Source of the DNA: Rhina ancylostomus
Taxonomy: Eukaryota
Direction of reading: 5' to 3'
Length of the DNA stretch: 64,000 nucleotides
Assembly: GCA_030265395.1 (NCBI GenBank)
Contig: JARFYF010000001.1
Coordinates: 46,909,250-46,973,249 of the forward strand
In this document: in pieces, positions 17,694 to 63,743 of the stretch
Numbering within the stretch: position 1 is the stretch's first letter
Layout: every line of letters begins with the position of its first letter
The notes under the pieces: model-generated
The model's database searches: none
What the model was told of the DNA's origin: nothing
The model's input: only the letters and a program-made list of their open reading frames with translations
Made by a program: the position numbers and the translations under genes

Positions 17694-17983
17694 NNNNNNN
17701 NNNNNNNNNNNNNNNNNNNNNNNNNNNNNNNNNNNNNNNNNNNNNNNNNNNNNNNNNNNNNNNNNNNNNNNNNNNNNNNNNNNNNNNNNNNNNNNNNNNN
17801 NNNNNNNNNNNNNNNNNNNNNNNNNNNNNNNNNNNNNNNNNNNNNNNNNNNNNNNNNNNNNNNNNNNNNNNNNNNNNNNNNNNNNNNNNNNNNNNNNNNN
17901 NNNNNNNNNNNNNNNNNNNNNNNNNNNNNNNNNNNNNNATGAATATAGCCAAAGTCATAAAATTATGAGATAGTTTCACAGAC

Positions 17984-18928: not shown

Positions 18929-19578
18929 NNNNNNNNNNNNNNNNNNNNNNNNNNNNNNNNNNNNNNNNNNNNNNNNNNNNNNNNNNNNNNNNNNNNNNNN
19001 NNNNNNNNNNNNNNNNNNNNNNNNNNNNNNNNNNNNNNNNNNNNNNNNNNNNNNNNNNNNNNNNNNNNNNNNNNNNNNNNNNNNNNNNNNNNNNNNNNNN
19101 NNNNNNNNNNNNNNNNNNNNNNNNNNNNNNNNNNNNNNNNNNNNNNNNNNNNNNNNNNNNNNNNNNNNNNNNNNNNNNNNNNNNNNNNNNNNNNNNNNNN
19201 NNNNNNNNNNNNNNNNNNNNNNNNNNNNNNNNNNNNNNNNNNNNNNNNNNNNNNNNNNNNNNNNNNNNNNNNNNNNNNNNNNNNNNNNNNNNNNNNNNNN
19301 NNNNNNNNNNNNNNNNNNNNNNNNNNNNNNNNNNNNNNNNNNNNNNNNNNNNNNNNNNNNNNNNNNNNNNNNNNNNNNNNNNNNNNNNNNNNNNNNNNNN
19401 NNNNNNNNNNNNNNNNNNNNNNNNNNNNNNNNNNNNNNNNNNNNNNNNNNNNNNNNNNNNNNNNNNNNNNNNNNNNNNNNNNNNNNNNNNNNNNNNNNNN
19501 NNNNNNNNNNNNNNNNNNNNNNNNNNNNNNNNNNNNNNNNNNNNNNNNNNNNNNNNNNNNNNNNNNNNNNNNNNNNNN

Positions 19579-25888: not shown

Positions 25889-26814
25889 CTGTCGATATAA
25901 ATTTGAAACAAAATGTAAGAAGATTGCAACAACAAACTCTAATTCTTTCACCATAGAGTTTAGAAGTGGCCCACTGAAACTCAAAAATGAAGGAAGAAAG
26001 GGTGGCAGAAACTAACAATCCATGGAGTGACTGTGGAGAAGAAATGATGGTTAAAAGATGTTAGCTGACCAGTGGCTGTGCTCAATGTAGTAAATTATAA
26101 ATTTCAATGCATGAAATTCAACATTTATTGACATATGTGAAGTGCATAAAAGCATGCAAGTAATTGATACAAAATGAAATGCTTTTTCCTGCAATAAAGT
26201 AGATGACAAAATGTGATATTAGGAGGAAAAAAACCCAATATTCAGTTGTCTTGTCGTTATGGAATAGTGATGGTGACGATAAATATCTGGCGTCTCCTCA
26301 AAAGTGGATATGGGGATGAAAGCAATATTGTGTTAGTAAAAACCTAAAAAGGTGCTTGATGTTAATCAATTGTTAATATCAAAATAAAAGGGGGAAAAAC
26401 TGAATAATATATTCATAGTAAGTTTTTTAAACATAGAACTAACTTTAAGTACTCCTTGTTATTGGCAGTGAAAGCATATGAAGATCACATAAATAAGAAC
26501 TAGTTTCACATTAAGTTTTAAAACATTGCTATCAAGATTTAACATTTGTAATGCATATTTTGTGAAATAAACAGATGTGGTCTTAACAGGCTTTGACGGC
26601 ATTGTATATAGATACTAAATGGGTAACACAATTACTTTTTTTACCATTAAAACATGATGGGAAAGAAGGAAGGAAACGGGAAGAACATAGTAGGAAAGAC
26701 TGAGTCATGTTAATTTATTAGCATAAACTAAAACCAAAAGTTAACTATTTTGTTAATTGAATGGATTAGACTCTGGAGTTCATATTAATAAAGATTTTAT
26801 CCCCATAATCCAAC

Positions 26815-29800
26815 CTCTTAATACAACTGTGAGTTTTGCAGAAGTAGTTGCTTTTCCTGCTTCATTCAGTGCCTCACAGATATATTCTCCTTGATGTTCC
26901 TCTTTCTGTACTTTGTTGATTATAAGTGAGTATGTGTCAAAATCTTGAAAACATTTGAACTCATTTTTTGAAGTAATTTTCTTCCCATTGATATACCAGT
27001 TTAAACTTCTCACTTTTTTTATGACTGTGCTAAATGTCACTTGGCTGCCCTCATCAGCAGTGATATCGGTAAGCCCTTTAATAATTATTGGATTGTCTTT
27101 AGTACTTTTTATTAGTGTTTTGCTTGGCATTTTCATTTTAGAAACAGGAGTAGCTAAATTTTCCTCCATTTTTTCATCTTTCTTGAGAATTTTTGTTAAG
27201 GGTTCTACTAGAACAGGCAGGGAAGAGGCATCTGTGGTAATTATCACACCACTAACATCCTTTACATGACTCATAACTTCCATTTCTCCAACTATCTCCA
27301 CAGATTTAACTTCTTGAGAAAACCCCTCTGATTTATCAATTACTACTCTTTCTTGAGATTTTGCTTTCTGATAAATAGCTTCAGCTGATTCACCCAATGC
27401 TGATTTATCCGCTGAGACTGCAGGCTGCTCTTTCCCTTTATGAGAAAACATTATAGTAGGTGCTGCTTTCTTTGGGTACTCCTGGATAATTGTAGATTGC
27501 ATTAACTCCTCAGTCTGTAATTTTAGTTCTGCCCTTTCCATCCCATACCTCCCCATACCCAAGGTATTTTCATCAGTGTTGACAGTTTCAACTATCTTTT
27601 TAGCAGGAGTGGTACTGATGCACATTTTTTCCAGCCTCTCAGCTGGCTTTGGAATTGTATCTAGCTGCTCAGCCATGAAAGCTTGCTGCTGTTCATGAAT
27701 AATAGAATGAAAAGCTGCTTTCAGTTCCTTTTGTAAGTCAGCTTTCTGAGGGTATTCTCCTTCAAAAGTCAGAGTTATATCAATTGGAGGACTGGCATTG
27801 GTAATTTGATACATATGTAAAGTGTGCTTTGGTTCCTTTTGAACTTTTAATTCCTCAATTTTCATCTCTTCTATGCAGCCCAATGAGATGGATGAAATAG
27901 CATGATGCTCACTTGCTAAAGCAGATTTAAGTGCTTCCTTGAACTGTGTACCTACATCTAAAGTGATTGCTTTGGGAATTTCAATCTTAAATGCCAGTTC
28001 TTTATGGAGTGCACCAGCTTCTTGTATTACATGGGATTGTAGTGTTTGATCTGGCTGTTTCTCCAGCTTCAGAATTGTTTGCTCTGATCTCTTAATATCT
28101 GAAGAATGTTCCTCTTCAAGAATCCGTTTTTCTTGAAGCAACAGTGGAAATCTTACTGATTGTCCCTCTTGGATCCTTACTGCAAAATCTTCTTCTGTAG
28201 CCTCTAGCACATCAGTACTTTCTATAGATATAGTCTTTTCTATAACCTGCACTGTAGCTGAAGATAATTTTGGTTCATATTTATCTTCACAGGTTGCTGC
28301 ACTAATGGCTTTGAAAATGACAAAGGAACCATCTTCAACTATTCTGCTGTCCGTTATAGTACTGAACTGTTTGACAGTGTCGTCAGGCTTAGATATTACA
28401 GCATGCTGCTCTTTTTCTTCAATTGTAAAAACTTTCTCTTTTGATTTTTGTATAGGTAGAATTACGGATGGGAGATACTTTGGTGGCAGAGGATCAGTCT
28501 TGATTTCAGAATGCAAACTTTCAATTTTCATTTCAAAGGATTTAGCTTGTTCCGCTGACAGTTCTGTCTTTTTTTCTACAACTGCAGCATTGCTGCATGC
28601 CTTCTCAAGTTTGTTCGGTGCAATATGAGCAGCTGGTTTTTCATAGGGTAATATACTTTCTTTATGAAAAATACACATTGTTTCTATATAATGAGGATAT
28701 AAAGTGGTTACATGTTCTTTTGTTGGTTTAATTTTAATGCTGTCCTTTACATCAGGTAACTGAGTTGTGTATTCATAAGGTATTAGATGCTGCTCTTCTG
28801 AGAATAATGAATGTAGAGATGTTGGGCTCTTGCTCAGATTAGCGTTCTCTTCCTTGGGTACTTCAAAAGTAAATGATGATTCTTTGGGTAGAGTACCTTG
28901 TCCCTTAACAACCTGTAAATGTAAAGGTTCCTTTCCTTTTTTTTCTGATGTCAATGAGATTGCACAATCTAACCCAAATATTATTTCAGTTTGTTCAGTT
29001 CTAAGTAGCTGTTTCTCTTCTGCAGTCAATGCCGTTTTCACAAATTTATCTTTCATTAACAAAGCTTGCTGTGTTTCAGATTTTGGCACTTTAAAGATAG
29101 ACTCCTTAGGGGTTGACTTCTGGCTTTCAGTAACACATGCCAAGAATGGTTTTGGTAATTCTTTTAATGATTTTGATTCTTTTCCAGTATCTAATGGGTG
29201 TATGCCTTTTGTAATTACATCCCCTATTTTTTTCTTCTCCATTGATATAGCTGTATAAATCTCCATTTTGCTTTCTTTTTGTATTTCACCTTTTTGTAGC
29301 TCAGGAACTTCAAACACGAACAAAGCTTCTATAGGGGGTTCTTGAAATCCTTCAACTTCGTAAGTTGCAGTTTTTGAGCTAGAAATTAGATGTTTTTTCT
29401 GTGACATACCTGTTGTACTTGTCACTGGTTTGGGAGTTGCAGCAGGCAAATCTTTAGTATTAAAGTTGACTTCCTTTAGAATTTCAGTCTTTTCCTCAAA
29501 TGTGGATAAATAAAGGGCTTGGTTTGATTGTGCTTCCTTGCTTGGTAACTTGAATACTGGTGGGCTTTTAATTGGTTCATAATGTTGCTCAGTAAAGCCC
29601 AGATTCTCCTGTGTAGTTTGAGAATGCTTTATCATCTGTTTTTTTCCTGAAATTGTTGTTTCTGCAGCAGAGATTGTCACCTCATGCAATAAGCCTGTCT
29701 CTTCACTGTGGACAGCATGTTTATCTTCAGAGGCTATCGTATACACCAATTGATCCCTATTCTGTAATTCTGCCTGAGTATCACCAGGTAATTTTACCGT

Positions 29801-30765
29801 GAATAAACGTGACTCAACAGCATGATCAGTAACAGACTTTTTGTATGTTTTAGTATGTTGCTTCTGAGCTATTTCCTGCTTTGAAAGCTCAACAGCAGAA
29901 ATATCGCTAATCACAATTAGTTCTGCAGTGCAAGTTGTATCTCCGAATGAATTAAATGCTTTGCAGGAATACAAGCCACTATCCTCCTTCTGTGCATTAT
30001 GAATAGTTAATGAACCAAAGCCACTGGAGAAGTAACTCAGGTTGTACTGCACACTCTGACAAATCTGGTGCTTTCCCTTATACCAAAGCACCTCTGGCAT
30101 TGGTTCTCCTGTCACTACAAACTCAAATTTAGCAGGCATCCCTTTTAGGCATTGCAAAGATTTAAATTCTTTGCAAAAATGTGGTGCCTCACCCCTAGAT
30201 ACATGCATGGTTTCTGCTTGTTGTACCATCATAGCTTCCTTTGACAGTGACTCTTTGCTTATCTTTTTTTCTGGCAGTTTTGCAACTGGAGGTTTTGCAG
30301 CTGATTTCCTAAATCCTTCCCTATCTTCCTTTGGTTTGATTTTCAAATATGCACTACATGAAGTCTCACCAAGTACATTAGTAGCTGTACAGGTATATTC
30401 TCCCTCATCCGTACATTTTGTGTAAGGTATAATTAGACTATATTCATCCTTATCATAAACAAACTTGTAATTTGATGAAGGAGTCAATTTTTTACCATTA
30501 TAAAACCACTGAATAGAGGGTTCGGGCTCACTAATAGTGACAGAGAATTTAGTTACATCTTCCACAACTACCTCCATATTAGAAATACATTTGATGAATA
30601 CTGGCACAGATTTTAAAGGCTCAGCATCAGTTTTTTTATCCAATATGATCAAAGGAACTGGAGTTTCAGGCCTGAGTTCAAATGTTTTGTCAGACACATG
30701 AAGTTCACTTGTGTAGAAATCTTCCCTCTCATCTTCAGCAGCGATGATTACAGAGCTAGAAAATT
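26815..30765 (-). CDS. TTN: Titin N2B exon (about human exon 49): two Ig + ~940-aa unique sequence + one Ig
   Basis: 3951 nt, phase 1-1; starts EFSSS; DFAVRIQEGQSVRFPLLLQEK; ends EHQGEYICEALNEAGKATTSAKLTVVLR. Confidence 0.96.
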
Positions 30766-33217
30766 CTGTATAAGAAATAAGATGGTTAAATTTAGAAGGC
30801 ATGTTGATTGCGAGTATTGCTTAATACTGGAAACCAAACAAAAATCACCAGAATTATTTATATGTCATTTTGTGCAAAACTTCTTTTGTTTCAAAGGGTT
30901 CCGTTTCTTTAACAGTCTTCTTTAAATATTTATCTTCAATCTAGATATGTAAAAGGTATGTGATTGTGCACAGAATTAGCTCAGACAATTAAGTAAGTTT
31001 TATTTTGCCTAAAACCAATTTTAATGACACAGGAAATTTGTTTTAATATACCATTTATTCATATTCATTGATTCAAAATGTGTCTCTTCTGAGTAATTAT
31101 TTGTGAATTAAAATATTCAATACATGATCAATATTTTCATGTCCTACTCAAAGTGAATAAAAAGGAGCTGTAGATTAAGGTTTGTTAGTAGTGGCTGGCA
31201 TCCTGCAAGTCTAGAAACACATTCCAGGGCATTCAAGATAGTAAGTGTTATTATTACATTAAAATGTACTGCATGCTACAAATTTTCAAACGACTTAAAA
31301 GTAATTTCTAATATAAGCTTTATTCCATCACTGAAATACATATTTTTCAATCAAATATATCAAATTTGATTGTTAAGTCACATCAAGAGATATCAAGACA
31401 TATTGTATTCCTACTTTTACCTTGGCAATAGCAAAATCAATGCTATAATTTTCATTATCATCAAAATAATTAAATGCTAGCTATAAACCTCTGATTTATG
31501 CTGTTAACTTCTCTTACCTAGGCAGCAATGAAATGTTAAAATGGGCTTCAGTATTTCCAAGCTATAGTAAAGGAAAACAGCCAACAGTTCCAGGTTGCTT
31601 TCTAACAATCCACACAGAGAGTGTGTGGGTATTAGTTAAGTGCAGAATGACATCCACTGTGTTGGCCTACAATCAAATTATTTCCCAACACACAAACATC
31701 AGAACTCTTAGTTCAGTAATACAAAAGGAAGCCGCTACCACCTGTAGAACCACAACTTAGTATAAGTTGCTGTCTAAAGGAGAGGTGGGATAATCAAAAG
31801 AAAATATATCTTGCATACCAGCTGTATATTTACATGATAACAGAACCAGGATTTTGTGTACATATTCGTGTACACAGCAAAATAAAATATATTCCAATTT
31901 TTAACATCAGAAACCTGTAGAAGGAATGAATAATTGCAGCATTAAATGTTTCTTCCCAATATGTGCAAGTCTTAATCTTTATACTCATCATGCTATATAT
32001 CATGTCAAATGTGGCAAATAAAACAGGGAAACAATGCATGCTTTCACACAACTAGATTGCCATACTGAGATTATCATCAGAAACATATTTATTAAAATAT
32101 TCATGCTAATATCATGAAAGGTACCCTTTTTCTCATTTTGGAATTTAAATAAATTGGCTGTGAACTTTCAGAATTAAATCCACTGAAGCTTGTTCTTTTT
32201 AAATATCATATAGTTTATATAGCTTGGACAAAAGTTGATTCATTGCAATAAAGTAACTTCACTTTAAATGTAAAATTAACAGATCACAAAATAACTATTA
32301 AATTTATCAGCAAAGATCTGACTCATAAACATACAGATACAATTTCATTATTTGCAAATTAGTCAGAGTGGATTTCCATTATTACTCTCAAAGTACTCTG
32401 AACTCATCTCTATTATGTTAAGATCTCTGGACTCACCAAATATAAAATTTTACTGCATGACTGCCAGACTAATAATTTCCAGGACCTACTAAACTCCATC
32501 ATGTCATATAATGAACCTCCTCCAAAAGCAAACATTGTAAAACACAGCATGAACCAAACTTTAAATTAATGACTCCGAACAATCTCTAAAATGTTAACCT
32601 TGAAAGACTAGCCAGAGGCATTAACAAATACAATAAATAACAAGAGAAGCAATGAATAAACCAAATTTTAAACATGTAGCCTATCGGACATATGAACCAT
32701 ACCACAGAATGGCAGAATTGTTTTTTTTGTTATGTAAGATTCCATCATAACAAATTTCCTGTCTCATTAATAAAAACATCAGAAGGACAAGTTAGAAATG
32801 GTAAAACTAAAAGTTTTTAGTTTTACCTCTGCACATTCTAGCTGCAGAGATCTGGGAATAGATTATTTTCTATTTTTGCTGAGAAATAGGAAGGAAGGTA
32901 AAAGGAGATGAGAGGACAACAGATAAAGTGGGATTATTTCTGATATTTGAAATCAGACTTGTAGAAATGCCATTTAAAAGCCACCAAAAGCAAACTTGTT
33001 TGGGCATCTACAGTATTCAATCTTAAGGCATGGATTCCCTACAAGAACTCTGACCATCTGAGAACACCTTATGACAGTTAGCATTCTTTTTTAGAAGCCT
33101 ATATCCAAATCTTTTGGTTTATCTTTCTCTCAATTGCATCACACAATATTTGGAGAGGGCACTTTCATGNNNNNNNNNNNNCAAATGATAATTTGCCCAT
33201 ATTGAATTATTCAGAGC

Positions 33218-34708: not shown

Positions 34709-37700
34709 TTACGCATAAAATACTTCTAAATCAGCAAATGTGACTGCATTTCCAGCTTTGTTAACAGCTTTGCACTTGTAGACTCCAGCATCACTTTCTG
34801 TAACACTTACAATGTTCAAATAATGTTGCCCAGAATCTTTTTCCCCAATGATGTAATTGGTGCCTTCAAGTATTCTGTCATTCCAATACCAATTTACACT
34901 AGGTTTCGGAGTACCAGTCACAAAGCATTGAAAAGATGCCGTGTTCCCTATGGCTGTGTTGCAGTCAAGAAGAGAAATCACAAACTTGGGTGGAATTTCT
35001 GTTACTTGAAATTCAAATGAACATGTTTCAGAAGCCTCTGCTTTAAACTGAATAGTCTCATCTTTGGCAGGTTCAGCAAATACATCAAAATTGATATTCA
35101 CACACTTTTCTCCTTTTTCTTTACTTCCGTTCTCTGTTACAGCGACAAGTTTCACAGATTTCTGAGAATCATCTCTACCTTGCTCAAATTCAAACTCAAC
35201 CTCAAATTCTGAACTCTGATTGTCACATAGCAAAGAATCACCAACAACAACATCTAATTCCTGTGAACGTTCATGAACACCACCCAGTGACAAAGCAGCT
35301 ACAGCTCTACCACTTGCTTTTGTTAGTGCCATGTTTGAGCTTGTTACTGCAAGATAACCTCTACATGTTGCTTCTCCAACACTATTCACTAATTTGCAAC
35401 TGTATATGCCACTGTCAGAAGGACAGACATTAGTTATTTTAAGACTATGATTAGAATTATCTCTTCTAATGTATTTCCCACCATCTACTGTTATACACAA
35501 ATCATCTTTGAACCACACTATTTCTGGAAGAGGAATACCTGCCACAGAACATTCAAAAACTGCATCGGTGTTTTCTGGAATATCAAGATCAAAAACATGG
35601 CTAATAAATCGTGGGGGCATTTCAGTGACTTCTAAATCAATTTTCACATCTTCATTTTCTTTTGCTGTTAGGTCTATATTATGCTCATCAGCAATCATCA
35701 TAGGAAGGACATCTAGTGAGATGATCATATTTTTATTGTCAGGAGTGAATTCAGGAATAGTAATAATTTTTATCTGTTTTTCAAATTCCTTCACTTCATG
35801 TTCATCAAGTTCAACTTCCAGAAGAATTTCTTGAGGTGAAGGAGATCTTGATGTTTGTCCTTGCTGCACATCAAATTCTATGACATGTTGATGAGTCACA
35901 GGCGGTGGTAATGCAACTAACCTTGTATCTTGTGCTACAACATCCACCTGAGCAATACTTTTGGCTTCTCCTACAATGTTTACAGCAATGCAAATATACT
36001 CTCCTTCATCTTCTTTTTGCATGCTATGAATCACTAATATACACAAATTTCCTTCCCTTTCTAGTCTAATTTTGTGATTTGGCTCTAATAACGATTTTCT
36101 TCTATACCACTTAACATCTGGAATTGGGCAACCAATTACTTCCGTAATAAATGTAAGTGAGCCTCCTTCGTGAATCCTTTTTCTACTAAGGGGTTTAATA
36201 AATGCAGGAGGCATTTCATTTCCTTTTGCTTCAGCTTCCTGTGGAGGAGTTGAAAATGCCTCCGATCTTTGCTCTTCAGTAGTTAAACTTGAACATTCAA
36301 TAGGTGTTGTTTCAATACCCTCATCTACTGGTGATCTAAAATAGGCTGGTGGTGTGTAAAACCTCTCTAGTAAAGTATTAGGAGGAGATCTACCCACAGC
36401 ATTAAGTGATGGCAATCTTTCTTCTGGAGTCACATAGCCAGGTGATTGAGGTGGGGTATGGAAGGACTCTGCAGATACAGCAGATCTGAAATTTTCAGAA
36501 GGCAAGGGTGGAGTATAAAATCTTTCATTCTCTGCTACTTCATCGCTAACTGTACTACTAATTTCAATTGACATTTCAGATTCAGGGGAAAGGGACCGTG
36601 TCCATTCTTCAGTTTGATTATAATAGTCATAAACAGCAGAAAATGTTACTTCTTCAACTTCCATTGAAGTTATTCCAGATTCATCATGCTGAAATGCCTC
36701 ATTATTTTCCCAATCATGAATTGGTGCTTCTTCCTGCCTTGCAGCAAGGAGATATTGCGCAATGGAAACATTTTCACTTGTCTCATCCTTCTTAGAAAAT
36801 GTTTCTGCTGAATCTACACTTACATCACAATTGGTTTTCTGAAACACTGAGTTACTTAACTCCATCTCTGATGTATTTTCTCCTACTTCTCCTTTATTAC
36901 TTTCAACAACTTGCTTAATTCTGCTTTCTGAAAATAAACTATCTTTATACATTTCTCCTAAAAATACACACTTGCTGCCTTTTACTTCGGTTTCTTCATT
37001 CATCTTCTGTACTTCAGATAACTTCTGATTTTTATCAAGACAGCGTAAATATTGGCTGATGGAACATGCATCTTCTATTGTTTTTTCTGTTTTTTGCCCT
37101 GTCACATCTGAATTTCTAATCATTGTATTATTAACCACCTCTAAAGATGGGCATTCATTTGGCAATTCAACAGCAAAGTCAGTCGATGATTCTGTGACTA
37201 TTTTATTATTTTTCTCTCTTAAAGATGAACTGTTACTTAAAAATTCATTATCAAAAGAACTCAATGAGCCTAATACAACTTCACTGCTCTCTTCCTTTAA
37301 AGGTGAAGCTTTACTTGAAATTCCATCTGCATTAGGTGGAAGAAAATCACCAATTTCAGAATTAACGGGAATTGCTTTTTTTTCTGCACTAAATGTAAGA
37401 GAATTATTCCTGTTTCCTTTCTGACAATGCTGCTCAATATCTTCACCCTGGCCCATTTTACTTAGATTATGTAAAAAGCAGCTAACAGATGATTCTGTTT
37501 CTTCATCAGAAGACTCTATATCTTTCAGGTGGTAAATGAAACTATGCATTACAGGTTCTATTGTGAGATGAGATATACACTGTACTTCCCCACCTTTATT
37601 CTTAGCAATGCATTTATAGTTTCCCACATCAGATTCTGAAACACCATTAATATACAATCTATAGGTTCCTCCGCTCTCTTCAAATTGGTACTTGCTCATA

Positions 37701-38199
37701 TCACAAGGTAAAACTCTATCATTTTGAATCCATGTAACAACAGGTTTTGGCTCACCAGAAATCAGACATTCAAATATCACTGTTTCTCCTTCTGTACAAC
37801 AAATCTTATCTAACTCTTTTACAACTCGTGGAGGTTCACAAATTACATCAAAAGAAAATTTAAATTTATGTTTTGTAGACTGAGCGGAGGGTTCTCGAGA
37901 TGAATCTGTGGAATCAACCTCATCTACTTGAAATAACTCGCTCCTTTCTTCATCTTGCTCTGGTGTTGGAGTTGGAGCAGTTATTTTAATTTCAACAGGA
38001 GAAGAAAGAGTAGAAAAACTCATTGGATGTGGTTGGGGTACTGAAACTTTTGGTATTTGCAGGGTGGATTTTATTAGTGGAATGGGTGGAAAATAAGACT
38101 CAACTTCCTTTTCCTCATCATCATTTTCAGTGTAGTTCTCTAGTGTTTCTGTCACATGTAGATTAAATATTTTCATTGATTCTTCAAACAGCCCAGTAT
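34709..38199 (-). CDS. TTN: Titin Novex-3, second and terminal exon (four Ig domains, stop TAA)
   Basis: acceptor ttttccag|AT; ITSMEVEEVTF, LPPPVTHQHV, NEMPPAFIKPL match Novex-3; stop at 34709-34711. Confidence 0.95.
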
Positions 38200-38298
38200 C
38201 TGGAAAATGAAAAAAATACTTAAATTATGATTTTCAATTATCTCATTGCAAAATATTTTAAGAAAATAATTACAAAACTAAAGTATAATGAATTTTAC

Positions 38299-41200
38299 CT
38301 TGTATTGTAAGGACGCAAGATGTTGTTGCAGTACCATACTGGTTGAATATTACACATGAATAAATTCCTTCATGTTCTTTGCACATGCAGCTAATAGTCA
38401 ATGAGGACATATTTTCTGTGGAGTAAATATCATAATCCCTATTTCGTGGAATTGGATGTTCATCTTTGTACCAAGTTACAGTAGGCTGTGGGTTCCCATG
38501 AAATTGACATTGAAGCACACAAGTGGCTCCTTGCTTAATTTTAGGAGATGTAATATGGTGAAAAAATACTGGTGGACAATGGTTGTAGAGTTCAACAGAA
38601 GGAGTCTCTGCTTTTGAAGATTCTTTCAGAGCTTTAAATTTATAATGATGCTCTTCTGCTGGTGCCTCTTTCATTAATGAACTGAATGATTCTACAGCCT
38701 GTTTTTTTTCTTTTAAGGAAGGCATTCCTACTGTTTGTGTATGTCTCACAGTTTGAGAAGGGCATTCAACTTCCCATTCATGTTGTTTCTGACCAATTTC
38801 TGATGCATTAATCGCTCCTGTCTTTCTGAGTGCTGATAGATCGGATATTATTTTGTCACCTTCCAGTTTCTCTGTTGGAACTTCTTTGTGAGTGCTGGTA
38901 AAGCTTTTAAAAGTTTTCATATGGTCTTCATCAAATTTAAAATTGCAAGGAGAATCTCTTGTGTCTACTGGTGATTGTTTTTCCGATGAGTTTGCATTCA
39001 TTGAAGTTTCTTTTTCCTCTGATACAGGGGAAGTCTTCGCCATCCATGTGGAATTTAGAACAGTTGCTTCAAATTGCAATTCTTTTTGTCTGATTTTATC
39101 TTCATGAATCACCTCAGCTTCTTTTCCTGGTTTTAAGGAATGAAAGTACATTTGATAATTTTCATCAAGTTTCCCTGGTAAAAATTTATTTTGTGCTTGG
39201 ACCAAAATTCCACATTGGGGCACATAAGCTGCCTCATGGTCTTCCATGGGTCCAGATGTACTTAAAGAGGTTGATGGATCTTTTCTATCAGTTGAAGCTG
39301 GTTTTATTGTTTGGATTGTGCTTTCAACCTGGTCTTCATATTGTGTTTGTTTCTGGTTGATGCTAGAAATGTTAATCACCTCCACAGGTGTGCAAATATT
39401 GGATGTTTCAGGGACCTCTTCAGATTTTTCTGTTACAAGCTCCCTCATTATATTAACAAAATCACCAGCAAAGTGATCAGGAGATATCTTATTACCTTCA
39501 TTAACTTCAGATTCTCTCATTTCAGGTTCTATTTCTTTCAGGAATGAACCAACAGTTGGGGAGATATCTTTGTTCTTCAAATCAGAGGGTCCCAAAATTA
39601 AAGTGAATTCACTAACCTTGCCTTTATACTGTTCATTTGGGCTGATTTCAGGCACACCAATCACATCTGTTTGTTTTACTCCTAACTTAGATTGATCAGC
39701 CATTTGAATTTCATGGCTATCTTCAGATCGTGCTGCCAAACAATTCCTTTCCACATGAATAAAATTTCTATAACTTTGTTCAGATGCTGGCTCATCTTCT
39801 TCATGAACCTCAGATTCCTTTGGAAGTTGCTTTATTTCCACTGGAAGTTGTTTTATCACCGGTCTAAAAAAAGATGATGCTTCTCTTGTCTTTGCTATCA
39901 AAGGAGAATGTCTCACTATGTGGATAGAATCCGTAATCTCTTCTTCATACTGGGTATCTTTCTGATTGATATGATCAAAATCAATCATCTCTGATGGAGA
40001 GTCACCAGATATTTCACAAGCAACTCCTGCTTTCTGGATTAGTAAATCATTTTCTTTGCTCAAGTATCTTTCAGGCCATGCTTCCACAGTTGTTTCATAG
40101 TTTACCTCCTCACTTTTATATGGAATATGCTTTACATCTTCTGGTGCATCTTTAATCAAGGAACTAATAAAAGTTGAATTTTCTTTTTTCTCTGATAAAG
40201 TAGAGGGCAACAATGTCTGGGGATTATCTTTAATTTTATCTTCACATTGCACCACTTTTTCATTTATTTTAATGAATCTTATTGCCTCATTTTCTTTGGA
40301 GGCTGGTTTAGTCTGGTCAACAGTTCTACAATCAAATCCAGATATCTGTTTTCGGAAGATGCTTCCAGACAATTTTCCAGGAGTAACAATAGGGTCTTTT
40401 TTGGCTTCATATTTACTTGAGGTTTTGTTTATTTCAACTGCATTAGCATCCAAAGATATACTGCTAGGGACTGAGGTGTTTTTTTCTGGTAGCAGAGAAG
40501 GAATCAGTTTTTGTGTGTACTCTCTTGTTACGTCTTCCTTTTCTCTTGCTTTGGAGTGGTCAAACATTGTATGAGAATATTCAGTTTCTCTTGCAAGTGA
40601 GTTCTGCAAACTTTCAGCCCTCTGATCAGAAATTATGTCAATATTTTTCATGAACTTATATTTATTTTGATATTCTTTTTTCTCCACCTGAGTTTGTTTT
40701 ATTGGTGTTGGAAGCCCTTTTTCCTTCAATAAAATTTCTGCATGTTCAACAGTGTCTGCAAACTGTGCTGCTTGTTTAATTACCTCTGTTTCTCTGGCTG
40801 CCTTTGTTTTATTGGTTCCTGATGTGAAAGAATCAAATGTCTCTCTTGAAAACGTTGATGGTAAATCCTTCTGCACACTTATAAATTCTCTGAACGGTTG
40901 GTCAGTAGGTGTATGTGGTTCACTCTCTGCTTCTTTTCTTGTATTATCTTCTTTCTGAAAAAAACATTCACTGGATTCCTGCGCTTCCAACCAATATTGA
41001 TTTTCCTGCAACTCTTCTGTTTCTTGGGATGGATCATCTTTCAGGAATTGCTCTTTTAAAGACTTCATGTCTTTTGTTTTAGAACATTCTTCAGTTATAT
41101 TTTCTTCAGGGGTACTTTTTAATTCTGTTTCCAGTGAAGGAAGTCTTAATATCTGTTCCATTTGTTGTTGAAATTCAAGAGGCCCTTTCTGGAAGTAATC

Positions 41201-42198
41201 ACCAGAAGACTGTGTCTGCTCTTCCACGAAATGAGATTTACTATGTTCATAATTCATGCAGTTAAGGTCTCCCATACTTCTGCTGCGCTGTCTGTCTAAA
41301 TAAACATGACTGTACTTTTGATTGTCTTCAGTTGCTGCACCTAGGTCAAATGAAGCTTCAGAGAGTGCAAGAGAAAATCTCTTTTTCCTTTTAGCTTCAC
41401 GTAAAAGATGCAGTTTAATCTTAATGTCTTCATCAATCAAGCTCTCTTTGTCGAGAATCGTCCCACATAACCAAGGTGAATATATTACTGCAGACTTATT
41501 AACAGCAAAGTCTTTATGTTTAGTTGCTGTGAATGTACTTTCAAAATACATTGTACGCACCAGTTTGTTTCTAGAACTTGACTTCTTTTGCAAAGCTCCA
41601 TGAATCACACACTTCTTATCAAAGGGAGACCCAACATGTCTAAGATCAACTTTAAGCCTTGCGTTCCGATTTTTAACTAAAGAGTCTACACTTTTGTGAG
41701 CCAACACTGTTCTTTTCACAAAATTCAGATAGTTTTCATTTTGCTCCTCTTTAAGTGCAACAAGTAAAGATGCAGTTGATTCTGCTGATCCCTCGGAGTT
41801 TATTGCAAATATTTTGTAGCTTCCAGAATCCTTCTCTTCCACATTATTGATTTCCAAACTTGAACTATGAATGTGCATTGTACTTTCTGTTTTAATAACC
41901 TTTCTTGAATCTTTACGAATAGGTCTGTTGTTATGAAACCATGCAACTTTTGGTGCTGGGCTGGCAACCATTTTGCATTTAAAAGCAGCTTGCTCTCCTT
42001 CATTTACAGATTTGAATTTCAGCTTTTCAGTAAATGATGGCCTGAAATTTTCAGACCATGAACCTACAGAAGAAGATCTGCTTGCACAACGTTTAGCAGA
42101 AACAAGACCCTGATCTAAATAATCTTCAGCATCAGAAAATGCATCCCGCAGGTTTTCTCTGTTTTCCAAACATTCTCTCCCATCGTCAAAAAATAATT
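38299..42198 (-). CDS. TTN: Titin Novex-3, first exon (two Ig domains + long unique region)
   Basis: 3900 nt, phase 1-1; ELFFDDG..RDAFSD..AINSEGSAESTASLLV..CVIFNQYGT; donor GTAAAA. Confidence 0.95.
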
Positions 42199-42346
42199 CT
42201 GCAGAACAAAGAAAAGTAAATTGAATGGTTTCTTAGAAAACAGTTCCAAACATTTTAAGAATTGAATTTAATACAAAATCTGAAAAATGAAATGACAAAC
42301 TTTATGCATTAGCTTTATTCGCAATTACTGTAAAAAATTCACTCAC

Positions 42347-42391
42347 CATATTTGTTCGAATAAACGCAAGACCATTTTCTGTTTAAAGATT
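42347..42391 (-). other. Candidate 45-nt in-frame cassette micro-exon
   Basis: tttttcctgctcag|AATCT..AATATG|gtgagt; phase 1-1, no stop. Confidence 0.35.
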
Positions 42392-42837
42392 CTGAGCAGG
42401 AAAAATCGCTCGTTCTTTGTTCTTTCTTCAGACTGTCGCAATTTCTTGTCAAAAGTCATATTAGAATGTATATTTTGAAAAAAGCATAAAGTGATCTCAT
42501 GACAGAATTGAGTTATTTTTTTAAAAAGTAAAATCTGTCTCTGTAGTGATTTGGGGATATCTAGATTATTACAAATTCTTACCTGGCTTGCAGACAGCAG
42601 AATAAACGCCCTTTCTGCTCCTTTTGGTAGTAGATACATTTTACAGCCAGTTTGACAAGTATAGATTTGAATTTTAATACACAGAGATAAATTCTTTTAC
42701 AATTCTTCATAAATTGCATGAGAAGGCGTTTATTCGAACTAATACAGTTGCTAGATTAACAATGTTAAGCAAATAAAGCCAGCATTCATGAACACATACT
42801 ACTATCTGCAAGCCAGTATAAGTGTATGAGAGTCAAT

Positions 42838-43415: not shown

Positions 43416-43466
43416 CTCTCACTTCCATTTCAATTTGCTGTTCAATCTTGTCTTGAATATTTTTCT
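43416..43466 (-). CDS. TTN: Titin small exon (about human exon 47)
   Basis: 51 nt; EKNIQDKIEQQIEMEVR vs human ..ERIEQEIEMEMK; cag|..|gtaacg. Confidence 0.93.
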
Positions 43467-62405: not shown

Positions 62406-63743
62406 TCACAGTCTTTATTTGATTTGTAATTGTGTAATTGATTGGTTGCCCAATTTGAGTGATTACTCCTTCAGGNNNNNNNNNNNNNNNNNNNNNNNNN
62501 NNNNNNNNNNNNNNNNNNNNNNNNNNNNNNNNNNNNNNNNNNNNNNNNNNNNNNNNNNNNNNNNNNNNNNNNNNNNNNNNNNNNNNNNNNNNNNNNNNNN
62601 NNNNNNNNNNNNNNNNNNNNNNNNNNNNNNNNNNNNNNNNNNNNNNNNNNNNNNNNNNNNNNNNNNNNNNNNNNNNNNNNNNNNNNNNNNNNNNNNNNNN
62701 NNNNNNNNNNNNNNNNNNNNNNNNNNNNNNNNNNNNNNNNNNNNNNNNNNNNNNNNNNNNNNNNNNNNNNNNNNNNNNNNNNNNNNNNNNNNNNNNNNNN
62801 NNNNNNNNNNNNNNNNNNNNNNNNNNNNNNNNNNNNNNNNNNCAGGGGGGGGGGGTACTTAGCTGATTTTGGAGAGGGCATCCTTACTAAAACATAGATG
62901 TACCAAACACTATTAGCCCAGAGTGTTCAGAGGGCAATTCTCCAACATGAACATTAATGAGGAATAAAGACTTCTGCTAAATGTACTTCTTTACTTTCTC
63001 CTAGCAGCCTGGCTTGCTTTATGGACCTTTTTTTGTAACCAATCATGCTTAAAGGGAAATCCAAACTAATATATCTAAATCTGGAAGCAAGTAATTTCTA
63101 CTGAACACCTGGTTGGCATGAAGGCTTTCACCACCCACCACATAATTTCCTGTTAGGAAAGAGGGTTTGGAACCTTAAAGAACTCTGAAGGCAACAAAAA
63201 CCAAGGGCAAATCAATCAGCAACTAATCTAGAAATGATTATTAATCTTTTTAAGCATGGACAACTTCCTGTTACTGAATGAGTGTTCAAATGTGCAACAG
63301 CTCATTACCCAGAGGATTTCCTAACATGGGAGACAAATGCCAGCAGAGTGTTTTGGGTTGACAGCACAAGTTAGATATGCTGCATTCTTCTAGTGAGCAT
63401 TAGTTGTGCAGGCCTAACACCCTCATTGATATGCTCTCCAGTATGACTTATGCCTCAAATATGCACATGCTCTGATTAACATTTGGGACCAATTCAACAT
63501 CTGCAGTGCCCCAAACTGCATACTAAATAGCTAAATTTTACATTATTATCTGATGTATTTTGTGATAGAAATCAGATAACATGATTAAAATCTTATCTAT
63601 AATTCCGTACTAATTTTTAATTAGTAAGTTCTCCTAATGGCAAACATTTTTTTTCTATTAACAGTTATATGCAAATCACACTTTTTTTATTGATACATCA
63701 TTAGATATAGATAAGACATGAATGATTACGGTAGGATACTGAC

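Follow-up and report, generated by a model that had tools for sequence, protein, structure and literature searches.

Competing RNA pairings that steer RNA processing have been described in several genes. In Dscam1 and in human ATE1 (elements R1, R3, and R4), one conserved element is complementary to two others in a mutually exclusive manner, and dependence on the order of transcription is likely (PMC7797038). In Drosophila PGRP-LC, CG42235, and Pip, competing pairing acts at terminal-cassette choice and masks the proximal 5' splice site, with selectors that lie upstream of acceptors and activate them (PMC6191721). Two conserved regions that are complementary to each other control a poison exon in BRD2 and BRD3 (PMC10789245), and in HIV-1 (the polyA hairpin) and foamy virus, an AAUAAA lies in a helix near a strong donor (PMC2645353, PMC3694450). 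In titin itself, Chen et al. (2018) reported a new exon 48', measuring 85 or 100 nt depending on an alternative 15-nt segment, inclusion of which introduces a stop, and published a conserved block along with it; RT-PCR over exons 44-48 showed exon 48' across the tested species, products of RT-PCR over exons 45-49 were given as 45-47-49, and Novex splicing was unchanged by RBM20 loss in rat heart (PMC5852582).

Here, we analyzed a 64,000-nt stretch of the genome of the ray Rhina ancylostomus (hereafter, the window). Open frames assign its minus strand to titin. Below the element described here lies a large frame, the first 150 residues of which match a Mobula protein at 93% identity and shark and chimaera proteins at 79-90%. 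Intron 47, which runs for 1,217 nt from exon 47 to the Novex-3 (exon 48) acceptor, contains a pairing element that lies 110-620 nt upstream of that acceptor, where the initial annotation had placed it (Table 1). We give an even chance to the reading that its docker and two selectors constitute a co-transcriptional two-state RNA switch, which would expose (fold A) or bury (fold B) the donor of exon 48', thereby tuning the output of productive Novex-3.

Like Dscam1 and ATE1, this locus has one docker with two mutually exclusive selectors, arms that are conserved in one orthologous DNA and as peptide traces, and a likely dependence on transcription order; unlike them, its selectors overlap donors, which pairing would mask rather than activate, and it has one known used exon and no clear sign of a duplicated exon array (PMC7797038). 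More specifically, a used exon for each selector was not found, with exon 48' alone appearing in the listed human junctions and in RT-PCR, in one tissue set each. The docker/selector analogy drawn in the initial annotation thus extends to the pairing scheme but not to a Dscam-type exon array, since one exon is seen used and the pairing would mask donors. As in the three Drosophila genes, pairing competes at terminal-cassette choice and masks a proximal 5' splice site, but both titin selectors sit on donors (one of them that of a poison exon), and the docker lies upstream (PMC6191721). Conserved complementarity at a poison exon is comparable with BRD2/BRD3, whereas titin has three competing arms plus a fourth that would mask a silent donor (PMC10789245). 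Relative to the viral helices, the titin element lies in a cellular intron and pairs over 120-360 nt with either of two partners, and its poly(A) site is a candidate one (PMC2645353, PMC3694450). The published exon 48' is alike in position, near-same size, tandem acceptors, frameshift or stop, and Novex-3 path, and the accessible part of that report mentions neither an RNA structure nor a second donor or a poly(A) signal (PMC5852582). Exon 48' and its conserved block are known; what is new here is the proposed folding mechanism, of which no earlier account was found in the accessible sources. We found no description of the fold, donor A, or the poly(A) signal in open-licence literature, although a catalogue of complementary regions conserved in human (PMC8052449) may list the pairs; TTN is absent from five of its supplements, and the accessible part of PMC7370890 contains nothing on titin intron 47.

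Table 1. Features of titin intron 47 and its flanks in the ray window, in the direction of transcription.
Feature	Positions	Strand	Remarks
Titin exon 47	43416..43466	-	51 nt, phase 1; donor matches 6/9 consensus positions
Arm D1, 5' arm of helix A1	42799..42822	-	20/24 identical in L016
Outer B helix, 5' arm	42769..42781	-	Unconserved as such in L016; -20.7 versus -11.9 kcal/mol, in a different register
Docker D2	42720..42748	-	28/29 identical in L016; matching peptide in pipefish model P0074
Hypothetical silent exon X	42583..42805	-	223 nt, 218 in L016; between the D1 AG and donor A; stops in all three frames
Selector S1, docker-pairing part (helix A2)	42600..42616	-	16/16 identical over 42616-42601 in L016
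Selector S1, 3' arm of helix A1 with donor A	42577..42600	-	Last exonic base 42583; 8/9 consensus
Exon 48' orthologue	42347..42444	-	Acceptors 42444 (98 nt) and 42432 (86 nt); donor B 42347
Selector S2	42345..42367	-	Exon 48' 3' end together with +1,+2 of donor B; 23/23 identical in L016
Outer B helix, 3' arm	42310..42322	-	Holds second AAUAAA at 42319; among compared sequences, in the window's species only
Novex-3 (exon 48) acceptor and first open frame	38270..42198	-	Acceptor at 42198

Farther along the window, the frame at 26780-30820 is one that we take to be N2B-like. The Novex-3 coding region falls into two frames (38270-42232 and 34709-38224) with a summed length close to that of the 2,483-aa Mobula model, so a short intron around 38224-38270 likely splits the exon in the window; in human, Novex-3 is given as a single 6,455-nt exon. 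Runs of N at 17694-17938, 18929-19578, and 62476-62842 are assembly gaps, which account for the low GC there and for the long frames stacked on either strand. No tandem repeats were found over 25000-48500.

The helices are genuine and beyond chance, and the core arms are conserved. As the initial annotation had claimed, segment 42725-42739 is complementary to two partners: 42726-42739 forms 14 Watson-Crick pairs with 42354-42367 (part of helix B), and 42725-42735 forms 11 pairs with 42600-42610 (helix A2), or 13 with one G-U and one further pair. The stem assigned to conformer A is likewise present, 42799-42816 pairing with 42583-42600 through 18 pairs including 2 G-U (helix A1); its proposed extension over the donor at 42583 was borne out, with the 5' end of D1 being complementary to +1..+5 of that donor with one bulge. 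D1 also holds a conserved AG at 42807-42806, a possible weak acceptor. The two outer stems proposed for conformer B can be drawn in the ray as well, i.e., 42769-42781 with 42310-42322 (13 pairs including 2 G-U) and 42743-42748 with 42327-42332 (6 pairs). The four G-U pairs named in that annotation become mismatches on the plus strand, in keeping with its view that they work in titin-sense RNA only. Fold A comprises A1 and A2, pairs the D1 AG with donor A, and covers donor A to +5; fold B joins the docker to 22/23 positions of S2, covering donor B as far as +2. Base-for-base mutual exclusion holds between A2 and B only, and the contested docker core is the 10 bases at 42735-42726 that are common to both pairings. 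Each selector overlaps a strong donor in the sequence: the only GU sites with at least 8/9 consensus in both introns (ray and the orthologous locus L016) are donors A and B, relative to 6/9 for the exon 47 donor.

To gauge chance, we scored 600 dinucleotide shuffles of the 1,217-nt intron together with 41 N-free 1,217-nt tiles of the window, defining the competing pattern as one arm common to a 14-pair and an 11-pair perfect helix. A 14-pair perfect helix arose in 14/600 shuffles, an 18-pair helix with G-U in 14/600, and both together in 0/600. The competing pattern itself was recovered in 1/600 shuffles and in 0/41 tiles, the tiling cutting through the element itself. Folding z was -3.54 on the titin strand and -2.79 on the opposite strand, so the strand argument alone is weak. 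A check proposed in the initial annotation, on genomic copies, returned one match in the ray's own genome (a match count, not a measure of copy number). That the element is the remnant of a foldback transposon or MITE, as the presence of several inverted repeats inside 500 nt might suggest, is extremely improbable, given this single match, arms that compete and nest instead of flanking, and the same sequence at the same location in a distant vertebrate; we rejected MITE identity on the single genome match and the orthologous copy in L016. Against Rfam, no family reached its gathering score, and one chance-level match (E 0.44) fell outside the element.

The orthologous copy was retrieved by scanning metagenome contigs with an 18-nt motif, which gave 47 loci that were sorted by blastn and tblastn. 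One of them, L016, is a titin orthologue, for which the nearest protein among the 120 homologues is a bird's (84%), and the other 46 were unrelated and discarded. Twenty of the 47 loci (L007, L008, L011, and 17 more) belong to one data set and carry a repeated element with the 18-nt motif, unrelated to titin. Identity between ray and L016 is 20/24 in D1, 28/29 in the docker, 16/16 and 16/18 in the two parts of S1, and 21/21 in S2, relative to 51/103, 52/132, and 67/138 (39-50%) in the spacers; donor A is identical at +1..+6 (6/6), as are the 10 bases past donor B (10/10). The three longest inverted repeats common to both sequences are the same three helices. Helix B reaches from -21 to +2 of donor B in the ray as well as in L016, at -28.2 and -28.9 kcal/mol, and helix A1 loses 2/18 pairs in L016, at its inner end. 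The core arms are thus kept in L016, whereas the outer B stems are lost, with 3/13 and 3/6 of their pairs broken, and we rejected the 13-pair and 6-pair stems as conserved features. In the conserved form of B, 42741-42748 pairs with 42345-42352 across donor B and not with 42327-42332; conformer B would mask donor 42347, as first proposed, but by this route. Over the core helices, the two DNA sequences (ray and L016) differ by 0 two-sided compensatory changes and 3 one-sided changes that keep pairing.

Gene models offered a second view of conservation; the 120 homologous proteins, including pipefish model P0074, are such models and not expression data. The 3' end of exon 48' is translated in one frame in 12/120 (four cartilaginous fishes, a frog, and seven teleosts) and in another frame in 2/120 (a turtle and a frog). 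Since 14/120 proteins carry the exon end in one of two frames, the comparison points to a constraint acting at the nucleotide level. P0074 carries peptide traces of the docker, S1 with donor A, and S2, in that order; its residues 1-62 matched only themselves among protein representatives. A 117-codon frame at 42343-42696 was considered as protein and rejected on two grounds, i.e., L016 has stops in all three frames over exon X, and the gene models read the exon end in two frames. Across P0008-P0074, many models set Novex-3 apart as a gene of its own, with a first exon that starts above the 48' acceptors and runs to the 48' donor; these are likely annotation artefacts, although they may reflect an internal start or a longer exon. 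The docker 20-mer gave 0 matches in genome contigs and 0 in viral contigs, and an alignment of the Novex-3 Ig domain gave 49 genome-contig and 38 viral-contig pattern matches, none of which was confirmed.

Donor 42347 is no orphan: a point that the initial annotation had missed, it ends the orthologue of exon 48', a published stop-codon exon, its use in the ray being expected from orthology. The exon lies between exon 47 and Novex-3 exon 48, with its donor 148 nt above the acceptor in the window and 134 nt in human. In L016, it measures 83, 95, or 98 nt, including the 15-nt alternative and the same stop, and a stop is read within six codons past exon 47 in 2/2 ray forms and 3/3 L016 forms. Sizes of 86/98 nt in the window, 83/95/98 nt in L016, and 98/101 nt from human junctions fit the published 85/100 within 1-3 nt. 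At about 42400-42404, four other cartilaginous-fish models imply an 85-nt exon 48' in one open frame, versus 86 nt in the window; there is apparently an extra T in the run, a variant or an assembly error.

Human muscle junctions were taken from Savarese et al. 2018 (supplementary file 6 / Table S5), which holds only events below that paper's filters (PMC5874998). Exon 47 joins the acceptor giving 101 nt in 374 reads (26 samples) and the one giving 98 nt in 286 reads (27 samples). Junctions from the 48' donor to exon 48 have 848 reads from 36/42 samples, i.e., by approximate arithmetic against 5,526 exon 48 inclusion reads, ~13% of Novex-3 junctions. Among the 64 coordinate matches, the 48' donor joins exon 48 only, and no human donor falls between it and exon 47, so that donor 42583 has no counterpart junction there; that 48' is not seen joined to exon 50 could be due to stronger decay and not to coupling. 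The visible part of Table 2 of that paper has no exon 47 entry. Within human exon 48, donors at ~104 and ~108 nt are joined to exon 50 (34 and 45 reads; rows 268-269), indicating that the start of Novex-3 can act as a cassette (PMC5874998). The initial annotation had envisaged a switch that masks one of two donors: two folds of near-equal predicted energy would each mask one, but these are not two used donors, given the lack of a counterpart to 42583 among the listed human junctions.

These junctions also bear on a distinctly unlikely alternative, in which 42805-42583 (exon X) and exon 48' are mutually exclusive poison exons, with fold A hiding X and fold B hiding 48' while freeing X. The D1 AG and donor A are both conserved and mutually paired in A1, X has early stops, and in a nested fold B the predicted openness rises from 0.08 to 0.47 at the D1 AG and from 0.14 to 0.44 at donor A. 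Against this, no junction lies at the expected human positions among the 64 coordinate matches, where two minor acceptors (4 and 10 reads) misfit the position expected for D1 (PMC5874998), and the accessible description of the exon 44-48 RT-PCR mentions no such band (PMC5852582). Moreover, the pyrimidine tract is weak, and the end of X is no clear duplication of that of 48', with 246/500 ray and 21/500 L016 shuffles scoring as well.

Returning to the two-state switch, ensemble folding of a 551-nt ray segment gave -135.1 kcal/mol for A and -138.3 kcal/mol for B, a gap of about 3 kcal/mol. Fold A dominates in 12/12 predicted ray transcripts that end before S2, and among longer transcripts B dominates in 4/12 and A in 8/12. 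For L016, a strictly nested model places A ahead by about 9 kcal/mol. Since Novex-3 is the minor isoform, this modeled preference for A counts against the switch. Fold B would need A1 to be retained as a pseudoknot, a state that our modeling approximates only: when the A1 arms were held out as its proxy, B outcompeted A2 by 2.6-7.7 kcal/mol in 4/4 tests. Also against the switch, donor B is predicted to be almost as open in fold B (0.27) as in fold A (0.32), although the 3' part of exon 48' does change, from 0.48 in A to 0.06 in B.

Fold predictions flip with the ends of the folding window, and this, together with the zero two-sided covariation and the position of S2 inside a used exon and adjoining its donor, would fit an alternative in which the blocks are kept as primary sequence (48' splice signals, protein-binding sites, or a DNA element), and one fold or none matters. 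We consider it unlikely: D1, D2, and S1 lie outside exon 48', are equally conserved, and coincide with the complementary arms, the competing pattern is as rare in shuffles as given above, and all three one-sided changes retain pairing.

Under the two-state switch, fold A would form first during transcription, since S1 is transcribed about 230 nt ahead of S2. Helix A1 would silence donor 42583 and may persist as a pseudoknot. Emerging S2 would then invade through unpaired docker bases and displace A2, unless U1 already occupied the 48' donor, such that a race between S2 invasion and U1 binding (a kinetic hand-off) would set use of that donor, thereby tuning unproductive Novex-3 splicing and perhaps also the balance between Novex-3 and long titin. 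With the 48' donor open, the stop-codon form, presumably subject to decay, would result, and the donor may also help to define the Novex-3 acceptor 148 nt below; a buried donor would favor skipping of 48' and possibly to onward splicing to exons 49/50. The AAUAAA in the docker would be masked in fold A and fold B alike.

This hexamer, a point that the initial annotation had missed, raises an alternative that we regard as somewhat unlikely, i.e., that the docker guards a dormant intronic poly(A) site: S1 and then S2 would cover AAUAAA, the two strong donors would recruit U1 against cleavage, and release would terminate titin past exon 47. The hexamer (42734-42729) and four further bases make up the contested 10 nt, centered on it. 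The L016 intron has no other AAUAAA and the ray intron has one more, against a background of 0.85 per kb, and UGUA, the CFIm motif, lies 9 nt upstream of it (42746-42743) in both species. Precedents exist in the accessible literature, in which a hairpin over AAUAAA represses HIV-1 5' polyadenylation (PMC2645353), foamy-virus poly(A) sites are controlled by U1 at a donor together with RNA structure (PMC3694450), and a related role is proposed for intronic pairings (PMC8052449). On the other side, the hexamer was noticed post hoc, its pairing with two partners would by itself suffice to freeze it, and a signal that needed only concealment could simply disappear; conservation of the hexamer is not independent evidence, because it sits in a wholly invariant block. 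Fold B would mask the second AAUAAA too, which lies at 42319 within the outer B helix and is absent from L016.

A broader version, to which we assign a low probability, is a three-state, U1-sensing switch conserved across jawed vertebrates that would decide titin length at exon 47. Fold A would open the way to the 48' donor and to Novex-3; in fold B, with A1 persisting as a pseudoknot, both decoy donors would be hidden and splicing would proceed to long titin; and an open state with both selectors occupied would expose the poly(A) signal and end the transcript after exon 47. Were this three-state reading true, antisense oligonucleotides against one selector could shift the balance of Novex-3 versus full-length titin.

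For the share of Novex-3 versus long titin, the locus provides a concrete mutable anatomy of four arms, two donors, and one poly(A) signal. In human, the presence of D1, D2, and S1 is assumed here; if human keeps the arms, they would mark deep-intronic sites at which variants could act via RNA folding, in a major gene for cardiomyopathy and myopathy.
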